From positions 1 to 59,504 of IMG/VR virus record IMGVR_UViG_3300015171_000005: a stretch of 59,504 nt of DNA. The stretch is one strand, 5' to 3'. Under the pieces are notes generated by a model. The model was given only the letters and a program-made list of their open reading frames with translations. It made no database searches and was not told the origin of the DNA. Below are positions 34,768 through 49,279 of the stretch, piece after piece (the first letter of the stretch is position 1; the number at the start of each line of letters is the position of its first letter). Made by a program: the position numbers and the translations under genes. Source of the stretch: a virus. Taxonomy: Duplodnaviria > Caudoviricetes.

Positions 34768-37700
34768 GCACCTTTCTCGATTCGGCGCTCGCACGCGCAC
34801 GCGAAATAGAGGGTAGTGCTGCGCCAGAAGGCGGCGCAGCACCCCCGGACGACGGCGCATTCTCGCAGGGTCTTCGCTCGGGCTGGACCGGGCTGAAGGG
34901 CGAAGGTCATGCGTTTCTGGGGGGTCTGACAGAGCCTTTTGCGCCCGATTACGCTCGTGATCAATACGCTCAGTCCAAAGCTCTTCAGGAGCAGGCCGCG
35001 ACCGAAGCCCCCAAGGTCAACTCCTTCGATCAGGTGACGGACCTTCGCTCGGGGTTCGACTATGGGCTGGGCAAGTTGGGCCAGATGATCCCCGGTGCCC
35101 TGCCAGCGGTCGGAGCCATGATCGCCACCCGTGGCCGCTCCCCGATTCTGGCCTCCACCGCCGCGACCATCCCCAGCGAGATGGGCGGGGCCATCCAAGC
35201 GCAGCAAAACGACCCCATAGCCGCCGCCAAACCGGTCTCTGAGCGCCTTTCGTCCGCTCTGGGTACAGGTACAGCCGCGAGCCTCGTGGAGAACGCTGTG
35301 CCCGGCTACATGGCCGGGAAACTCATGAATAAAGGGGTAGCTGCTGGAGCCCGGCAAGGACTCGCCCCGATCATTGGCCGCAACATCGCCGAAGGCTCGG
35401 CGGGCCAAGCTGTCGCGGCGACCGGAGCCGAAGCGATCCGGCAGGGCGGCGAGAGCGATCTCAACCCCGACCGGGACACATCCGGCGACGCCGCCCGCCT
35501 GAAGGAAGCCGCCATCGGCGGGGCGGTCATCGGGGCCCCCTTCGGGGCCTTGGGCGCGGCAGGGGAGGCATTGCACCGCCCGCCCCGTGAAAGTGCCCCC
35601 AGTGCCCCCATTGACGCGGCCAAGAATCTTGTCGCCAGCGCCAAGGACAAGATCACCGGGCTCTTCACCAAGGAGAGCAGCACCGACGACGCTATCGCCC
35701 GGCGCGTCGAAGCCGATCTGCCGATCGATCCCCTGCCGCCCGGAGCCGACCCCAACGCGCACGTCGAGAAGAGCGACGCCAAGGCTGTCGAGTGGGCCAC
35801 CGCGAAGGCGAAAAGCTGGATCGAGAGCGACTACTTTCCGCAGGCAATGAAAGAACGCGCCGCCGAACTCCTGCCGAAGATTCATGAATTCGCCGCGCGC
35901 CAAGAGATCGCGGCCATGGACTTGAGCGACAAGGCGGTCAAGCAGGGCTCGGCTTTCTATCAGCACATGGCCGAGAAGAGCGGCACCCTGAAAGCCGCAG
36001 GCGACAAGATCAGCGAAGGCACAGCGGCGCTCTTGGGTACGGTCAAGGAAGCGGTCGCGAGCTTCGACACGCAGTCGGTGATTCAGAAAGCCACGCAGAC
36101 GCGCGACGCCGCGCTCTCGCTCCTGAAGAGCAAGAGCCTGCCACCCGAGACCAAGGCCAACCTGCAAGCCGCCGCCGACAACGTGCAGGACCGCTCCAAG
36201 CAGTTGTACGTCGCTGCGGTGGCCCAGTACGAAAAAGCCATGGCTTCGGCCAAGGACGGCACGGCGCAGGAAGCCATAAAGAAGAAGCTGGCCGAGATCG
36301 ACAAGTGGGCCAACAACGGTGCCCCGCCCGACAAGCTCCAAGGCATTCTCGATGTCGCATCGATGATGCTGTTCAGCAAGGACTACGCGGGTCCGCGCAA
36401 GATCATCAGCGACGAATTGACCCAAGCCATCAAATCGACACGCCCCGAACTGGTGAAGAACGCCGACGCGCTGCGCGATGTCTCGGAAGGCATCCGGCTG
36501 TATATGGATGAAGCGCGCAAAGGTGCGGCCCCCGAGAAAAGCTCGACGACGCGTGCGTACATCCGCTCGTTGCTGGGCGATCAGGCGGTCCCGTTCTTGG
36601 ACAACCTGCACACCAAGCTCTACGGCGACACCGACCACAAGGATTTCTACAAGAGCTTGGCTTCGCTCGACACGCGCGAGACCAATCACAAGTCGATGGC
36701 CGACGTGGTGCGCGAGAACAAGCTCCCCACCAGCGACGCGGACGTGAATGCAACCGTGCCGTTGCTGCGCCGCTATACGCGCGGCGACCACGTGAAAGAC
36801 ATGAGCCCGGAGAAGACGCAAGTCCGCGAGAAAGCGTTTCGCTCCGAGATCGAAAAACACTTCGGCAAGAACACCGACAAGGTATTGAAGGCATTCCAAA
36901 AGGAGCATGAAGCCAGTGGAGAATCTCCCACCGAATCCCGAGCCACCCCAAGAGCCGACAGCGGAGATGACAGAGACCATGAGTCCTCGAAGAATGCTGC
37001 GCGCGGAGGAATTGCTGAACACACCCTCGAAGCAACGGACCTATCTCAAGAGAGACCGCGATACTACGCTGGCAAGGGCGGCGCGTTCGTTCTCTCCCAT
37101 GAAGCCCACGTCCGCGAGTACGGACACGAAAACAGTCAAGCGGCGGGGCTTCTCGAACATGCAACGAAGCAAAACGAAGATCGTTCTGTAAGTTTCGTGA
37201 AAGCAGCCGACTTCATGAAGGAGCGGCGCGAAGCGATCCAGCACGAGATCGACAACGAGCACAGCCCGAAGAAGATCGAAGCACTGAAGGAAAAGCTCGC
37301 TCAGTATTCCGATGAAGAGCTTCATGCCGCGACAAACGGCAAGCCGGAAGACTACGGCGTGGTCGCTGCTGGCGGGCAGAAGATCGAAGGACGCATCACG
37401 CATGACGAAGCGCGTGCGATGCTGCTCGATACGAAGAGGTTCCCCAAATCCGAGAGCCGCATCAGCACGGACAAGCACAACGTCACGCTGGATGCGGTGC
37501 GTATCACGCAGGAGACCAAGAAGAAGCTTCCGTACATCGACGGCGAAGGCGACGACCGGCGTACCGCGCGCGCCTTCATGGAAGGGCTGGCGTCAGTGAT
37601 GAAGCACTACGGCGCGGGATTGGAAAAGCCCTTGCCCGACGATCTGGTGATCCTGCGCCGGGCAGGCGGCGGCGTCATGACCTTCGGCGAAGCCAAGAAG

Positions 37701-38279
37701 CTTTCCAGCATGCGCGATCCGCTCACCAAGAAGGCAGGGCGCGATGAGCATCTGATGAAGGAACTCGACGAGTACAGCAAAGAAGAATTGACGGCTCTGC
37801 ACAAAGACGCCATCGACGCGCGCGATGAATTCGCCCAGCGCGGCGCGGATGTGCTGGCCAAGGGTAAAGAACGCTTGGCCGAGCGTCTTGAACGCGAGCT
37901 TGATTCTCGCAAGGTGGACGACAATCGGGATGGGCGCGAAGCAGATTCTACGTTGCGTGACAACGTGCATGAAGCGGCCCTTGTTCATGGCAAGGACGGC
38001 AAGCTCCAACAAAAAGTCGGGCTCGACGACAACCCGCTGAATGCGCGCAAGGGCGATCCGTTGAAGGCCGAGCGCATCGGCTTGGAGAAGAGCGTCGAAG
38101 GCAAGCCGCTGAAAGACATCATGGTCAACATGAAGCTGGCTGACGAGCACGGCACCGTGCTCGATTGGAAAGGCGACGCCAAGGAGCATCCGGGGCGCAT
38201 GAGCGCCGAAGACGCGTTGACCGACATCCACCAGCGCAAGAAAACACTCGATCTCCTGATGGCATGCCTGAAGGGATGA
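34764..38279 (+). CDS. large internal virion/ejection protein
   Basis: 1171 aa; Gly/Ala-rich hydrophobic N-half, charged C-half; ATGA coupling. Confidence 0.75.
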   Translation: MSTFLDSALARAREIEGSAAPEGGAAPPDDGAFSQGLRSGWTGLKGEGHAFLGGLTEPFAPDYARDQYAQSKALQEQAATEAPKVNSFDQVTDLRSGFDYGLGKLGQMIPGALPAVGAMIATRGRSPILASTAATIPSEMGGAIQAQQNDPIAAAKPVSERLSSALGTGTAASLVENAVPGYMAGKLMNKGVAAGARQGLAPIIGRNIAEGSAGQAVAATGAEAIRQGGESDLNPDRDTSGDAARLKEAAIGGAVIGAPFGALGAAGEALHRPPRESAPSAPIDAAKNLVASAKDKITGLFTKESSTDDAIARRVEADLPIDPLPPGADPNAHVEKSDAKAVEWATAKAKSWIESDYFPQAMKERAAELLPKIHEFAARQEIAAMDLSDKAVKQGSAFYQHMAEKSGTLKAAGDKISEGTAALLGTVKEAVASFDTQSVIQKATQTRDAALSLLKSKSLPPETKANLQAAADNVQDRSKQLYVAAVAQYEKAMASAKDGTAQEAIKKKLAEIDKWANNGAPPDKLQGILDVASMMLFSKDYAGPRKIISDELTQAIKSTRPELVKNADALRDVSEGIRLYMDEARKGAAPEKSSTTRAYIRSLLGDQAVPFLDNLHTKLYGDTDHKDFYKSLASLDTRETNHKSMADVVRENKLPTSDADVNATVPLLRRYTRGDHVKDMSPEKTQVREKAFRSEIEKHFGKNTDKVLKAFQKEHEASGESPTESRATPRADSGDDRDHESSKNAARGGIAEHTLEATDLSQERPRYYAGKGGAFVLSHEAHVREYGHENSQAAGLLEHATKQNEDRSVSFVKAADFMKERREAIQHEIDNEHSPKKIEALKEKLAQYSDEELHAATNGKPEDYGVVAAGGQKIEGRITHDEARAMLLDTKRFPKSESRISTDKHNVTLDAVRITQETKKKLPYIDGEGDDRRTARAFMEGLASVMKHYGAGLEKPLPDDLVILRRAGGGVMTFGEAKKLSSMRDPLTKKAGRDEHLMKELDEYSKEELTALHKDAIDARDEFAQRGADVLAKGKERLAERLERELDSRKVDDNRDGREADSTLRDNVHEAALVHGKDGKLQQKVGLDDNPLNARKGDPLKAERIGLEKSVEGKPLKDIMVNMKLADEHGTVLDWKGDAKEHPGRMSAEDALTDIHQRKKTLDLLMACLKG

Positions 38280-38280
38280 C

Positions 38281-38658
38281 ATGAAGACACTCAGTCTCGA
38301 AGAGATCAACAAGCTGGGCATGCGGATAAGGAAGCCCGATGGCTCGCCCGCCGTCGAGCGTACGCGCGAGCCCGAGCCCGACAAGAGCGAAGAACTCCTG
38401 ACCATGCTCTTGGAAGCGATTCGCGCCATGCGCGAGACCAAGACCAACGTCGTGGTGGAAGCCAATCCGCAACTCGAACTCCTGTCGTCGAGCATCCTGA
38501 AAGTCCTGAAACAAAATACCGAACTCATGCAAGTCGTGCGTGACGCGATGAAGAAGGAAGAACTCGAAGTGCCTGAATCCCCTCCTTGTGAATGGAGCTT
38601 CGAAGTGATATACGACAAGGGCAAAATCACTCACATCAAAGCCAAGGAAATCAAATGA
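38281..38658 (+). CDS. hypothetical protein
   Basis: Abuts the upstream stop; phage-like codon usage. Confidence 0.75.
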   Translation: MKTLSLEEINKLGMRIRKPDGSPAVERTREPEPDKSEELLTMLLEAIRAMRETKTNVVVEANPQLELLSSSILKVLKQNTELMQVVRDAMKKEELEVPESPPCEWSFEVIYDKGKITHIKAKEIK

Positions 38659-38663
38659 GTGTG

Positions 38664-39275
38664 CTACCGCTCTTTCGACTTCTTCTTGAGTTCGCGTATA
38701 CGACGTTCTGCCAACTGCCATTCATGGTAGTAGGTGCCGTATCCGGGGCAGCTTCCGGGCTGCTGCTTTCCACGCAGGTAAATACGCAGATTCTTTATTT
38801 CGTTGTTGGTCTTATTGCCATCGCGATGATCAACACATTCATACGATTCAAGCGCGCGTCCCAAATGCATCGCCATGATGAAGCGATGAGCCATAACAGG
38901 CTGGCCGCATCTCTGCATCTTGCGGTAGATGGGCAAAAATTTCATCGGCACATCGCGCGGCAGGAATTTCGTATACCCCATATTCGTGGTTCGGCCCGGA
39001 GTAAGGCGCAAGCCGATGCGCCATTTATGGGTGCCGTCTTTGACTTTCTTGATTGCGCACGGGCGGCACAAACCGAGAAAGTTAGGCCGCTTCATTTCTT
39101 TTCGTATTTCCGTAGCCGGTCTAATGCGTTTTCCTTTACATTCAGGGCAGCGCACTGTAACAAGAACTCTGGAATATCCTTTGTATTTGGCTAGAACAGG
39201 AGCCGAAATTACAGAAGGATGCTTGATAGCGGTGAAGATAGGGGCGCGAGGCACACATAGTTCCGTAGAGTTCAA
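38664..39275 (-). CDS. HNH homing endonuclease, antisense to the late operon
   Basis: AHR.IMA.HLGR.L...E.VDHRDGNK.NN.I.NL plus CPEC/CRPC Zn motifs; AT-richer; real start may be GTG 39254. Confidence 0.88.
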   Translation of the reverse strand: MNSTELCVPRAPIFTAIKHPSVISAPVLAKYKGYSRVLVTVRCPECKGKRIRPATEIRKEMKRPNFLGLCRPCAIKKVKDGTHKWRIGLRLTPGRTTNMGYTKFLPRDVPMKFLPIYRKMQRCGQPVMAHRFIMAMHLGRALESYECVDHRDGNKTNNEIKNLRIYLRGKQQPGSCPGYGTYYHEWQLAERRIRELKKKSKER

Positions 39276-39302
39276 ACGTATATCTTATCAATAGAGGTAA
39301 AA

Positions 39303-39743
39303 ATGTCAAAATCTGACGCGTTCGAGGCCGATTTTCTGAAGCTGATCTTCAACGCCACGCCGATCGCCAACATCGGGGATAACGCGGCGGCTTCGCCGCT
39401 CACGCAGTTGTTCGTCGCTCTACACACGGCTGACCCCGGCGAAACGGGCACGCAAGCCACCAGCGAAACGGCGTACACCGGCTATGCGCGCCAGCAGGTT
39501 GCGCGCACCACGGGCGGATGGACGGTGAGCGGCACGGCACCGACGCAGGTTGCGCCGGTTGCCAACATCGACTTTCCAATCTGCACCGCGTCACCGGGTG
39601 CCGCCATCACGCACTGGTCAGTCGGTGTGGCGGTCTCGGGCGCGACCAAGCTCCTGTACAGCGGGACGGTCTCACCCAACATTACAATGGCAATAAATGT
39701 CATTCCCCGGCTCACTACAGCTTCAACAATTACGGAGGATTGA
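39303..39743 (+). CDS. small tail-associated structural protein
   Basis: GAGG RBS; LFVALHTADPGE.G.Q..SE..Y.GYARQ.V.R...GW motif. Confidence 0.8.
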   Translation: MSKSDAFEADFLKLIFNATPIANIGDNAAASPLTQLFVALHTADPGETGTQATSETAYTGYARQQVARTTGGWTVSGTAPTQVAPVANIDFPICTASPGAAITHWSVGVAVSGATKLLYSGTVSPNITMAINVIPRLTTASTITED

Positions 39744-40185
39744 AATGACTCCTGAAGAGCGCAAAAAATTGCGCAACGCCGCAGTGCGTCGATACGAAAA
39801 GCGCAACCCGGATAAAAAGAAAGCATGGGCGCGTAAGACGTATTTGAATCGATCAGCAGAAGAAAGGCAGAAGCAGGCTGATCAGAACTTGAACGCCGCG
39901 CGGGCAATGCGCCAAATGCTTTTGAAAGCCATGGGCGGCAAGTGTGTGCGCTGTGGTTTCGATGATTGGCGCGCCCTTCAGGCTGACCACATACATGGCG
40001 GTGGCGGTAAAGAACGCGCAGTAGTCACGAACCGGAACGCGTACTACAAAACCATTCTGGCGAACCCGGATAAATATCAGTTGCTCTGCGCAAATTGCAA
40101 TTGGATCAAGCGGTATGAAAAAGAAGAATACCGCTGGAACGTGATCCCGCGCCTGACCACCGCCAGCACGATCACGGAGGATTAA
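39696..40185 (+). repeat. protein-level direct repeat NVIPRLTTASTITED* at 39696-39743 and 40138-40185
   Basis: Identical 15-aa peptide; the first 12 codons are all synonymously different, the last 3 identical. Confidence 0.95.
39745..40185 (+). CDS. HNH endonuclease fused to the duplicated C-terminal peptide
   Basis: GGAGG RBS; GGKCVRCG....ALQ.DHI.GGG...YQLLCANCN.IK. Confidence 0.88.
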   Translation: MTPEERKKLRNAAVRRYEKRNPDKKKAWARKTYLNRSAEERQKQADQNLNAARAMRQMLLKAMGGKCVRCGFDDWRALQADHIHGGGGKERAVVTNRNAYYKTILANPDKYQLLCANCNWIKRYEKEEYRWNVIPRLTTASTITED

Positions 40186-40189
40186 GCGA

Positions 40190-40462
40190 ATGCCGAATCC
40201 CAACGAACAGGCAGTAGGGCTAGCAGCCGGGTTAACGGGCCTGAAGGCCCGGATGCTCGAAGTCACGCAGCAAGTGGCTGGCCAAGCGGTCACGTCAGAA
40301 ATGCAAGTGGTGTGTATTTCTGACGCAGCAGGCAACATCGTTGGTGTTTTTCCAGACCCTGCGGTACAGCAGGGCATGCTTCAGGAATTACGTGCGATAC
40401 GCGGTCTTCTTGCTCGCAGGAACGGCGAACTCGATCTCAGTGGCGATATCATTCAACCTTAA
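40190..40462 (+). CDS. hypothetical protein
   Basis: GGAGG RBS. Confidence 0.7.
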   Translation: MPNPNEQAVGLAAGLTGLKARMLEVTQQVAGQAVTSEMQVVCISDAAGNIVGVFPDPAVQQGMLQELRAIRGLLARRNGELDLSGDIIQP

Positions 40463-40474
40463 AGGAGAAATAAA

Positions 40475-41227
40475 ATGCCGTCCCCCGCAGCACTCATTCG
40501 TGGTCTCGTATCCCGCGTCCTGCCCCAACTTTCGCCTGACGGTACCGACAGTGAAAAAGCATTTCGCTTGGGTCGTGATGGCTCCGTCTTCACTACCTTC
40601 GCACACAGCACCAAGCACCCGCAAGCGCATGAAGGGGCGTACTTTGCAATAGGCAACCCCACCGAAGGTACGGGTGTCGCAGGGGGTATCACGTCGGCCT
40701 TCACCAACACCGTCGCTGCGTTCGCCATCTTCAACAACAACGATGCGAACAACCCGGTGTCGCGTTCCATCGACATCGATTTCTTGAAGCTGCTGTATAC
40801 GGTGGCTCCAGCGACGGCGTCGGCCATGCGCTACGCGATTGCAATCGATGACATCGCACGCACGCCTTCGGCTGGTTTCGCCAAGCTGACGGGATCAGCG
40901 GGGGTGAGTGCAGCAAACCCGGTGGGCCAAGTCATCAACCTCTCCGGTGCCATCGCTTATGCCTTCACGGGCGGTGTGCTCATGACGGTTCCGGCCCCCG
41001 GCCCCGCTGTGCGTTACGTGGCGCGTGGTGGTATCGCTGGTCTTCCGGTCGTGGGTACTGAACATCTGATCCGCTTCGGCGCAGACGGTGCCAACTCCGC
41101 ACAGGGAACCATCGATGCTCCGGTATCGATCGCGCCCGGTAAATGGTGCGTCGTGCATATCTGGTGGCCGGGCAACGCCACCACGGGACCGAGCGCCGAA
41201 TACTCGCTGGGCCTGATCGAGAAGTAA
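40475..41227 (+). CDS. putative virion protein
   Basis: AAGGAGA RBS; beta/Gly-rich composition. Confidence 0.75.
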   Translation: MPSPAALIRGLVSRVLPQLSPDGTDSEKAFRLGRDGSVFTTFAHSTKHPQAHEGAYFAIGNPTEGTGVAGGITSAFTNTVAAFAIFNNNDANNPVSRSIDIDFLKLLYTVAPATASAMRYAIAIDDIARTPSAGFAKLTGSAGVSAANPVGQVINLSGAIAYAFTGGVLMTVPAPGPAVRYVARGGIAGLPVVGTEHLIRFGADGANSAQGTIDAPVSIAPGKWCVVHIWWPGNATTGPSAEYSLGLIEK

Positions 41228-41228
41228 C

Positions 41229-42299
41229 ATGCTGATCGTTCTACAGCAGCCTTACCCCCTCTCGGGGGTAGGGTCGTCTGATGGCGTGGCGACGGTCCCC
41301 GGCGTCGGCGCTGCGCTCTGGGCGATCACCGCCATATCAACAGGTGTCGGCGCTGCCAGTGGCACGGGCAACGCGGTGTGGGCCGTTGCAGGAAGCTCTA
41401 CGGGGCTGGCGACGGTCCCCGGCGTCGGCGCTGCGCTCTGGGCGATCACGGGTAGTTCCGCTGGTGTTGCTACAGCCCCAGCAGCGGGGGCTGCGCTCTG
41501 GGCCGTCGCAGGAAGCGCCGCTGGGGTGGGAGCGGCTCCTGCGATGGGGAACGCGCTCTGGGCCGTCGCAGGAAGCTCGGCGGGCGTGGCATCGGCCAGC
41601 AGCGTGGGCGACGCGCTCTGGGCCGTCTCGGGAGCGGCTGCGGGCGTGGGTGCCGCCAGCGGTACCGGCGTGGCCCTCACCTTGGCCGCAGGCACCAGCA
41701 CCGGGGTGGCAACGGCCCCAAGCGTCGGAGATGCGATCTGGGCGGTCGTAGGTAGCTCGGCAGGCGCATCCACCGCTCCGGGCGTCGGGGCCGACGCTGC
41801 CGCGCCCAGCGCCGCCGTAGGTACGTCGGCAGGTGTAGCGGCGGCTCCTGCGGTCGGAGCGGCCCTCTGGGCGATCACAGGAGCGTCGGCTGGTCTCGGG
41901 GTAGCCACGGCCACCGGCAACGCGCTGTGGGCTGCTACAGGGCAATCCGCAGGGGTGGCTGGCGGGCAGGCGGTGGGGGCTGCGATCCTCCCGAGCGTTG
42001 GATCAGCCAGTGGAACAGGAGTGGCGGCAGCGGTCGGGATGGACGGCAACGTGGCTACGGTCGTCGCGGCTGCGGGGACGGCAGCGGGCACCAGTGATGC
42101 GCCCGGCGTAGGTTTCGCCGTCACCAAGACCACAGGTGGCACCGCGTACCAGCGAGCGGTCCAGAAGGCGCTCGACGAATACCCGCTGCCGGTGGCGGCT
42201 GACAGAAATGACAACCAGAACGATGTCGTACTCGCGTGCGTGCACGCATTCTTGAAGATCAAAGGAAAACGCCATGAGCATCGGAGATTGTCTCGCTAA
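41229..42299 (+). CDS. Gly/Ala-rich repeat protein (20-aa period), fibre-like
   Basis: G.S.G.A....VG.ALWA(V/I) repeats; 43-bp exact repeat at 41287-41329 and 41407-41449. Confidence 0.8.
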   Translation: MLIVLQQPYPLSGVGSSDGVATVPGVGAALWAITAISTGVGAASGTGNAVWAVAGSSTGLATVPGVGAALWAITGSSAGVATAPAAGAALWAVAGSAAGVGAAPAMGNALWAVAGSSAGVASASSVGDALWAVSGAAAGVGAASGTGVALTLAAGTSTGVATAPSVGDAIWAVVGSSAGASTAPGVGADAAAPSAAVGTSAGVAAAPAVGAALWAITGASAGLGVATATGNALWAATGQSAGVAGGQAVGAAILPSVGSASGTGVAAAVGMDGNVATVVAAAGTAAGTSDAPGVGFAVTKTTGGTAYQRAVQKALDEYPLPVAADRNDNQNDVVLACVHAFLKIKGKRHEHRRLSR

Positions 42300-48787: not shown

Positions 48788-49279
48788 TTACCTGTGACGA
48801 ATACATTCGGGGTGGAGCTTACATTTTGCTTCTATGTAAGCATCGTAAGCAGCTTCGGCGGTTAGATAAGTCCCTAAATATTTTCCTTTTCCATTAACTT
48901 GAATTTTGGCTCTAAAACGATTTCTCTCGTAAGAAACGCCTCTAAACCCTGTCATATTATTTTTTTGCGGCTTGTATTGATTTTGCATATTCATTAAATG
49001 AGTAGCATCACGCAAATTTGCCATCCTGTTATTGCTTCGATTTCCATCACGATGGTCTATGCTATTTTTTGGGTATGTGCCATGTGTATAAAACCAAGCA
49101 AGCCGATGAGCGTAATAGTCCACAGCATCTATCGAAAGTGTTATGTATCCTTCCTTAGTTAAGCATCCAGCTATCGACCCTGCCAAGCAATGCGACGTTC
49201 TAATACGACGCGTGAATATCCCGGTTTTAGGGTCGTAAATCAAAACTTCTTTCAATCTTTCATGAGATAGTTTCTTCAT
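48788..49279 (-). CDS. HNH-AP2 homing endonuclease
   Basis: L.YDP.TG.F, AHRLAW.Y..G..P...IDH.DGN..NNR..NLR, G.RGV..F.A.I...GK.KYLG.Y; markedly AT-rich. Confidence 0.92.
   Translation of the reverse strand: MKKLSHERLKEVLIYDPKTGIFTRRIRTSHCLAGSIAGCLTKEGYITLSIDAVDYYAHRLAWFYTHGTYPKNSIDHRDGNRSNNRMANLRDATHLMNMQNQYKPQKNNMTGFRGVSYERNRFRAKIQVNGKGKYLGTYLTAEAAYDAYIEAKCKLHPECIRHR

Follow-up and report, generated by a model that had tools for sequence, protein, structure and literature searches.

The window, by which we mean the whole stretch of DNA analysed here, is a complete IMG/VR virus record (IMGVR_UViG_3300015171_000005) of 59.5 kb (59,504 nucleotides) with a GC content of 58%. In this phage, a gene for an HNH endonuclease directly follows a gene for a Gp80-type fibre or neck protein (hereafter the fibre gene), and the two open reading frames (ORFs) close with the same peptide. 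We consider it highly probable that a free-standing HNH homing endonuclease gene of the PHROG 2255 type entered the last ~20 codons of the fibre gene. As judged from the sequence, the incoming DNA extends from ~39681 to 40137 and brought a replacement gene end in foreign, AT-richer codons; since this end encodes the same conserved C-terminus, the fibre protein stays complete without an intron or intein. A stop codon is part of the replacement end, and its final codons also contain the ribosome-binding site (RBS) of the nuclease. The resident end, consisting of 15 codons, a stop codon and the RBS of the next gene, appears to have been moved downstream, where it is read in frame as a tail of the nuclease; with this end and its RBS kept, the next gene retains its translation signals.

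The features concerned are as follows (+ being the strand presented and GC3 the G+C content at third codon positions):

39303 to 39743, + strand: gene for the Gp80-type fibre or neck protein, 146 amino acids (aa), intact
39681 to 39743, + strand: low-GC3, putative replacement 3' end of the fibre gene, ~20 codons and a stop, containing copy 1 of the repeated end
39734 to 39739, + strand: GGAGGA RBS of the HNH gene, within the final codons of copy 1, 5 nucleotides (nt) before the ATG at 39745
39745 to 40137, + strand: HNH endonuclease proper, 131 codons, without a stop codon of its own
40138 to 40185, + strand: copy 2, the putatively displaced native 3' end of the fibre gene, 15 codons and TAA, an in-frame tail of the HNH ORF
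40176 to 40181, + strand: GGAGGA RBS of the downstream gene, within copy 2, 8 nt before the ATG at 40190
40190 to 40462, + strand: downstream gene, 90 aa, matched by contigs of sequencing run X2 (introduced below) at 135/147 and 238/243

The peptide NVIPRLTTASTITED, followed by a stop codon, is the C-terminal end of both the fibre gene at 39303-39743 (copy 1, 39696-39743) and the HNH ORF at 39745-40185 (copy 2, 40138-40185), and a single base separates the fibre stop at 39743 from the HNH start at 39745. Codons 1 to 12 all differ between the two copies, all of them synonymously, so that 12 of the 15 codons differ; the last three, ACG GAG GAT, are identical, and the stop codons are TGA after copy 1 and TAA after copy 2. 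At the DNA level the copies agree at 33 of 48 bases, with a longest identical run of 10 nt, and the pair was not detected by a DNA repeat finder. In a tblastn search within the window, the 15-residue tails find each other (E-value ~5e-5) and nothing else. A 15-residue identity at the ends of two consecutive ORFs is not a chance occurrence. A preliminary description of this DNA had listed the same two endings codon by codon, and the ORFs, the codon comparison and tblastn confirm it. Furthermore, a separate assembly of run X1, probably of the same sample, covers 37000-41316 with 0 differences, and the locus is therefore not an assembly chimera.

The fibre protein matches Pfam family PF23140, Gp80 (podophage GP4 fibre I protein), with an E-value of 5.6e-14 and 53 bits against a cut-off of 27. 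It also matches 8jou_a ('Fiber I and fiber-tail-adaptor of phage GP4'), both in a PDB sequence search (E-value 7.5e-5) and by fold in Foldseek (E-value 4.4e-5; template modelling (TM) score 0.61-0.65), with weaker fold matches to neck or connector proteins of other phages. The AlphaFold model has a predicted local distance difference test score (pLDDT) of 92.9, with 86-96 over the last 21 residues. The C-terminus is conserved: in an alignment of 45 sequences, D146 is invariant and E145 is present in at least 90%.

Rare codons begin ~5 codons before copy 1, near 39681, from ATT ACA .. GCA ATA onward, and GC3 is 0.38 over the last 21 codons of the fibre gene as against 0.81 in the gene body; over the stretch of codons that covers copy 2 it is 1.0. 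Under a phage codon table drawn from 12 long ORFs (8,350 codons), copy 1 has a log-likelihood of -24.7, a value as low as which was reached by 0.05% of 200,000 random synonymous codings (P ~0.0005); the value for copy 2, -12.2, is typical of how this phage would code the peptide. The foreign tract is longer than the 15 duplicated codons and starts near 39681. The preliminary description had proposed that copy 1 came with the element and that copy 2 is written in the phage's usual codons. Both proposals stand, copy 1 being atypical for the phage and contiguous with the low-GC nuclease gene; the extent of the foreign piece has to be revised, as the tract begins earlier.

The fall in GC3 towards the 3' end sets this gene apart from its homologues. 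Among 135 distinct Gp80 genes, gathered from viral, metagenome and genome contigs, the window shows the largest drop over the last 21 codons (-0.43; mean difference 0.007, standard deviation 0.117), followed by loci L083, L238 and L082 at ranks 2, 3 and 4. The probability that the three marked genes, namely those with a PHROG-2255-type nuclease behind them (the window, L082 and L083), should all be in the top four of 135 by chance is ~1e-5. At L238 (1-1031), the Gp80 gene is followed by a complete HNH_3-type ORF (509-1006) without a fibre-type tail, and the fibre gene there ends in TITID, not TITED.

The extent of synonymous change between the copies had been called striking in the preliminary description, a judgement that the homologues do not support. 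Where homologous Gp80 tails encode the same residue as copy 2, they already use a different codon in 41-65% of cases, the proportion rising as GC3 falls, and at a codon difference of 65% the probability of at least 12 of 15 codons differing is ~0.17 (binomial, own arithmetic). The triplets ACG GAG GAT are present in 8 of 128 distinct Gp80 tails, and one tail of the 128, that of L045, specifies the very same 15 residues in a gene that is only 63% identical overall. The apparent saturation would need no special selection and would be expected from a diverged, AT-richer donor with the same conserved C-terminus. As for copy 2, 63 of 77 high-GC3 homologues are closer to it than to copy 1.

The HNH gene most likely starts at the ATG at 39745, a methionine standing in the first column in at least 90% of the rows of a 60-sequence alignment. 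Its product is a member of PHROG 2255 (E-value 6.2e-17), while Pfam Endonuclease_7 scores 20.2 bits, under the cut-off of 23.6. All 16 columns that are invariant among 60 homologues are kept, including C67, C70, D81, H82, C115, N117 and C118; these comprise two CxxC pairs, D81-H82 and N117, and the HNH (beta-beta-alpha-metal) motif is intact. Foldseek returned nothing at an E-value of 0.001 or below, the weak fold matches (all with E-values of at least 0.1) being to HNH nucleases only, and a PDB sequence search with the nuclease gave just spurious matches to de novo TIM barrels. In the model of the nuclease, pLDDT is 89-98 in the core and 56-59 in the tail (131-146), and the fibre-type tail is predicted to be disordered. 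A promoter scan found no credible promoter for this gene. Its GGAGGA is supplied by copy 1, as had been claimed.

The uninterrupted site in relatives

Run X2 is an independent sequencing run that belongs to another study than X1, the probable source, and holds a near-identical phage. One X2 contig of 725 nt matches 38370-38659 (289/290), skips 38660-39314 and then matches 39315-39691 (324/377), with 7 other letters between 38659 and 39315. It continues for 49 letters beyond 39691 that were not placed automatically in the window. The first 30 of these read in frame A-V-N-V-I-P-R-L-T-T-A, and by hand count the gene-end letters agree with copy 2 at 24 of 26 bases and with copy 1 at 19 of 26. On the other side, an X2 contig of 232 nt begins within copy 2, at 40159, and reaches 40305 in the downstream gene. 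Since one contig leads into copy-2-like codons and the other leads from copy 2 into the next gene, the HNH-free allele appears to end in copy-2-type codons directly before the downstream gene. The preliminary description had taken copy 2 for the original gene end and had expected an HNH-free relative to end in such codons before its homologue of the gene at 40190; this is what is found in X2, and the typical codon usage of copy 2 agrees with it.

Further X2 contigs cover the 90-codon downstream gene and the gene after it at 97.7-100% identity. Identity in the right flank recovers stepwise, from 135/147 to 238/243, 377/386 and finally 181/181, such that the fibre gene is the most divergent part and the difference from X2 declines to the right of it, which is at most an indirect trace of homing with co-conversion of flanks. 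No X2 contig lies over 39760-40127 or 38840-39207, and this blank was not used as evidence. The 90-aa downstream gene belongs to no Pfam or PHROG family, and searches of viral, metagenome and genome contigs found no homologue of it, its sole other carrier being the X2 relative.

The closest relative in the collections, L162 (82% at the amino-acid level), carries neither this nuclease nor a second one that lies at the 5' end of the fibre gene in the window (see below), and in it the fibre gene is immediately followed by the next gene. L162 is syntenic with the window: counterparts of the upstream and fibre genes are followed by genes for a repeat protein and a large downstream protein. The nuclease is thus polymorphic in its presence at the site, being present in the window and absent from X2 and L162. 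HNH-free relatives of L082 and L083 were not found among the collected loci, and DNA and protein searches of isolate phages gave only distant Gp80 matches (at most 67%) and one weak HNH match.

Probable displaced ends on other nucleases

A homologue set was made up of the 120 best nuclease homologues in a collection of 5.8 billion proteins. The residues TED form the C-terminal end of 15 of these 120 proteins and occur at 0 of 17,067 other positions in the set, and all 15 proteins lie within the best 66 (Fisher P 1e-4). Eight of the 120, the window protein included, match a profile of fibre-gene ends (28 columns, 94 ends); all eight matches reach the last column, with starts at columns 11, 11, 13, 14, 18, 18, 20 and 22. 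At least six local variants of the fibre end are represented among the tails, and identities among the tailed homologues are 45-70%. Tail length ranges from 3 to ~18 residues, always anchored at the stop codon, and those of P0015 and P0019 have internal losses. The longest remnants (~18 residues) start in a conserved 'MAVGV' stretch; this corresponds roughly to the onset of copy 1's foreign codons in the window, which fits an original insertion ~20 codons before the stop. The tails look like decaying displaced gene ends, held in place at the stop codon and the RBS of the next gene and eroding from the junction.

The same surroundings are met in DNA. The two best nuclease relatives among 80 IMG/VR loci, L082 and L083, both lie directly after a Gp80 homologue, and they are the only other loci with a PHROG-2255-type nuclease after a Gp80 gene. 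The L083 nuclease ends in TED and a stop codon, together with the RBS of the next gene, which starts 5 nt beyond. The contigs of P0015 and P0023 are absent from IMG/VR, where the best matches are to the L082 contig at 45-53%.

In a scan of 124 distinct HNH genes for tails that repeat the end of the upstream ORF, the window (8 of the 8 last residues) and L089 stood out, the other 122 reaching at most 3 of 8. At L089 (2840-3405; on the same contig as L277 and L359), a PHROG-2255 HNH gene lies directly after a gene for the terminase large subunit (PHROG 2, E-value 5.4e-9), and the nuclease end repeats the terminase end at 9 of the 15 last residues, with ~26 of 33 bases in agreement (own count). 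The L089 nuclease tail is a diverged repeat of the last ~12 residues of the terminase. On these comparisons, the window locus is one case of a recurrent architecture and no singleton.

Two further close homologues, P0002 and P0006, share another C-terminal tail, ..NHQFTLF followed by V or I, K, R or G, and A. This tail may stem from a third kind of target gene, whose end was displaced.

The second nuclease and rival explanations

The comparison with X2 and L162 also bears on the 5' end of the fibre gene, where the following features are found:

38281 to 38658, + strand: upstream gene, 125 aa; X2 is 289/290 identical over 38370-38659
38655 to 38659, + strand: orphaned native fibre start, ATGAG, overlapping the upstream stop, from comparison with X2 and L162
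38660 to 39314, no strand: 655-nt insert absent from X2, whose contig joins 38659 to 39315 (side 255, depth 7.5)
38664 to 39275, - strand: HNH_3-type endonuclease gene, 203 aa (Pfam PF13392, E-value 8.9e-10; PHROG HNH families)
39309 to 39282, - strand: promoter-like TTGACA-16-TAAGAT, from the promoter scan
39303 to 39314, + strand: putative replacement of the first four fibre codons, MSKS, where HNH-free X2 and L162 read MSKG in other codons

The 655-nt insert enters the fibre gene after its fifth base and contains the HNH_3 gene, the promoter-like site, a new RBS and a new 5' end. In X2, ATGAG is followed by the 7 letters and then by the sequence from window position 39315 onward, which gives the start MSKGD, as in L162. 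Both ends of the fibre gene thus appear to have been entered by nucleases carrying replacement ends, in a mirror-image layout. Just one other locus, L184, has an HNH_3 gene there in the same orientation, and its fibre gene also starts ATG TCA AAA. The upstream gene, which has no Pfam or PHROG match, overlaps the fibre-gene start with its stop codon in HNH-free relatives, and its homologue directly precedes gp80 in L162.

Two other features of this region deserve mention. The low-GC3 end of the upstream gene (38550-38600) was considered as a co-conversion tract and rejected, as X2 is 289/290 identical there without having the insert. A 200-codon open frame (38592-39194, + strand) runs antisense through the HNH_3 gene with the orphaned native fibre start in frame and a GC3 of 0.48; it may be a product of chance.

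The body of the fibre gene between the two nucleases differs by 14% from X2 (324/377), with 289/290 identity in the left flank and 98-100% in the flanks at large, which suggests that the two nucleases bound an exchanged fibre allele. The pattern of divergence resembles the co-conversion tracts and exchange boundaries of free-standing phage nucleases, as passages of PMC2988022 and PMC10448857 describe them.

A number of observations weigh against an entry of the 3' nuclease with its own replacement end. The fibre body is itself divergent from X2, so more DNA may have been imported than proposed, and the order of events cannot be read from the data. The X2 evidence at the 3' end consists of one contig at a depth of ~7.5 and a hand alignment of 30 of 49 loose letters, with no joint called automatically, and the end of L162 discriminates weakly, agreeing with copy 2 at 36 of 45 bases and with copy 1 at 33 of 45. 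L082 has no recognisable remnant; a candidate out-of-frame fibre end there was rejected (profile E-value 16). The in-frame tail may be due to chance, ~10 of the 23 closest homologues being in frame as against an expected 1 in 3. Finally, the DNA context is limited to three Gp80-linked nucleases.

The divergence of the fibre body can also be explained by allele replacement, whereby 38660-40137 (the HNH_3 gene, the fibre allele and the 3' HNH gene) was imported whole by gene conversion from a related phage, with copy 1 as a co-conversion tract. This explanation, which overlaps with the one we prefer, is possible, if on the whole unlikely. It accounts for a divergent body between a nearly identical left flank and a right flank recovering to 181/181, and it can draw on established precedents: the co-conversion of flanks and marker exclusion by free-standing phage endonucleases in the passages of PMC2988022, and nuclease genes at exchange boundaries in ICP1-type phages in those of PMC10448857. 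However, the imported allele would itself be a mosaic, phage-like in its body (GC3 0.81) and nuclease-like in its last 21 codons (0.38); L082 and L083 show the same tail-specific drop in GC3; and the retained native end demands an extra step.

A one-off illegitimate recombination could have joined a foreign nuclease gene to the fibre end, the duplication and fusion being accidental and irrelevant to mobility. There is a single locus with a long remnant as DNA, an in-frame fusion has a prior of 1 in 3, and the 90-aa downstream gene is unique to the lineage. We nevertheless regard such an accident as improbable in view of the recurrence, with TED ends in 15 of 120 homologues and longer fibre tails in 8 of 120, in at least six sequences, together with L082 and L083 at the same site and a terminase gene with the same layout; identities of 45-70% argue against the tailed homologues being copies of one contig family.

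It is very improbable that the nuclease uses its fibre-type tail as a functional module, for instance in docking to a fibre partner or into the virion, although all 15 residues are intact in the window nuclease, many homologues have tails and the same peptide is confidently folded in the fibre protein model. The tails vary from 3 to ~18 residues, are anchored at the stop and have internal losses in P0015 and P0019, the pLDDT of the tail in the nuclease model is 56-59, and the constant features are the stop codon and the RBS of the next gene.

That the nuclease sits in a self-splicing intron or is an intein, with the gene ends as alternative exons, was raised in the preliminary description and might be thought of because group I introns often house HNH genes, yet its probability is negligible: an Rfam search over 38200-40700 at E-values up to 1 found no intron family, copy 1 stops after a complete conserved C-terminus, and a stop codon and a change of frame part the two ORFs, the nuclease having its own RBS. 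The proposal in the same description that the gene is repaired without splicing is borne out by these findings.

Proposed mechanism and known systems

Under the reading we prefer, that of a nuclease gene entering with its own replacement end, the nuclease would cut or nick the uninterrupted gene end in HNH-free relatives, and repair would copy the cassette, homology being provided on the left by the body of the fibre gene and on the right by the native end that was kept. Downstream genes vary from one relative to another, so this end may be all the homology there is on the right. Neither the re-spelled copy, which would escape cleavage, nor the native copy in its interrupted form would be a good substrate, and the two copies would be too unlike, with 10 nt as their longest identical run, to recombine the nuclease out. 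The earlier suggestions that the re-spelling destroys the cut site and avoids deletion are plausible.

A broader view, to which we give somewhat less than even credence, is that HNH nucleases of the PHROG-2255 clade and, independently, HNH_3 nucleases form widespread 'self-patching' homing cassettes that invade the conserved ends of essential genes for structure and packaging by means of re-spelled replacements. Beside introns and inteins, they would represent a third lifestyle within ORFs; the retained native end would be the sole right-hand homology arm where downstream genes are unrelated, and paired cassettes would drive the exchange of fibre or neck alleles.

To our knowledge, homing nucleases are usually said to persist in genes only inside introns or inteins, and otherwise to be intergenic or to split genes. 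In mitochondria, Allomyces atp6 was reportedly the subject of Paquin et al. (1994), as cited in PMC3630166. Mobile-ORF 'gene hybrids' of fungal mitochondria are described in the passages of PMC3630166 for atp6 of Allomyces macrogynus and for atp6, atp9, cox2 and nad3 of Glomus sp., and the preliminary description was right that gene ends duplicated along with homing endonuclease genes are established there. As in the window, an endonuclease ORF has entered a conserved gene in its 3' part: a foreign C-terminal piece is in phase with the gene core and is followed by an endonuclease ORF and, downstream, by the native piece; according to these passages, the native piece resembles close relatives and the inserted one does not. 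The window shows the same traits, namely an inserted piece in phase, an endonuclease ORF directly after it and a retained native piece that is closer to the relatives. It differs from the hybrids in that passage in belonging to a phage and not an organelle, in its HNH nuclease where theirs are LAGLIDADG or GIY-YIG, and in the shortness of its pieces (15-21 codons); furthermore, its nuclease ORF is separate from the gene core and reads into the native remnant, which keeps the RBS of the next gene. The locus works like a fungal gene hybrid and is not a member of that set.

Among phages, intronless homing by the Seg and Mob nucleases of T-even phages is similar in that a free-standing nuclease lies between or beside essential genes. 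In the passages of the review PMC2988022, these nucleases are inherited with co-converted flanks, through double-strand-break repair from the nuclease-carrying genome, which itself differs at the target. The T4 nuclease genes it treats are intergenic and cleave hundreds to thousands of bases away, whereas the insertion in the window is inside an ORF and a duplicate end is kept; the term 'duplicat' does not appear in the text of the review as available. The same source gives cases of gene splitting by endonuclease insertion, with mobE in nrdA of phage Aeh1, mobA in the T4 topoisomerase gene and seg in gene 43 of phage 25. These likewise place a free-standing nuclease within an essential phage coding region without an intron or intein; they leave two polypeptides that reassemble, whereas the gene in the window is made whole by the carried end and the leftover is not needed. 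In ICP1-type phages, as in the window, nuclease genes flank a segment that differs between near-identical phages; the passages of PMC10448857 make no mention of carried replacement ends, the 2 occurrences of 'duplicat' referring there to the nucleases' own coding sequences, and 'recod' and 'synonymous' have 0 occurrences in them. A literature search, with most subscription journals outside its scope, yielded no description from phages of a replacement gene end carried in this way.

The locus represents a phage solution known so far from fungal mitochondria, in which a second gene end, written in other codons, travels with the element. The TED tails of the 15 among the 120 closest homologues, along with the terminase case, suggest that the architecture is common. 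Odd C-terminal tails on phage HNH proteins and breaks in codon usage at gene ends would be readable marks of past invasions. The empty site of the X2 type and the window form a natural pair of alleles for the study of target recognition by a small, uncharacterised HNH clade. Finally, two nucleases around an exchanged fibre or neck allele point to nuclease-driven shuffling of virion surface genes.

Two features outside the locus may be added. A 356-codon gene at 41229-42299 has Gly/Ala/Val-rich repeats with spacings of 60 and 120 nt (families D1 and D2); short contigs of the X1 assembly pile up there, and the counterpart in L162 has 266 codons. A 163-aa nuclease-like ORF at 48788-49279 (- strand) has an HNH_3-type motif, with an E-value of 5e-4 in tblastn with the 5' nuclease as query.

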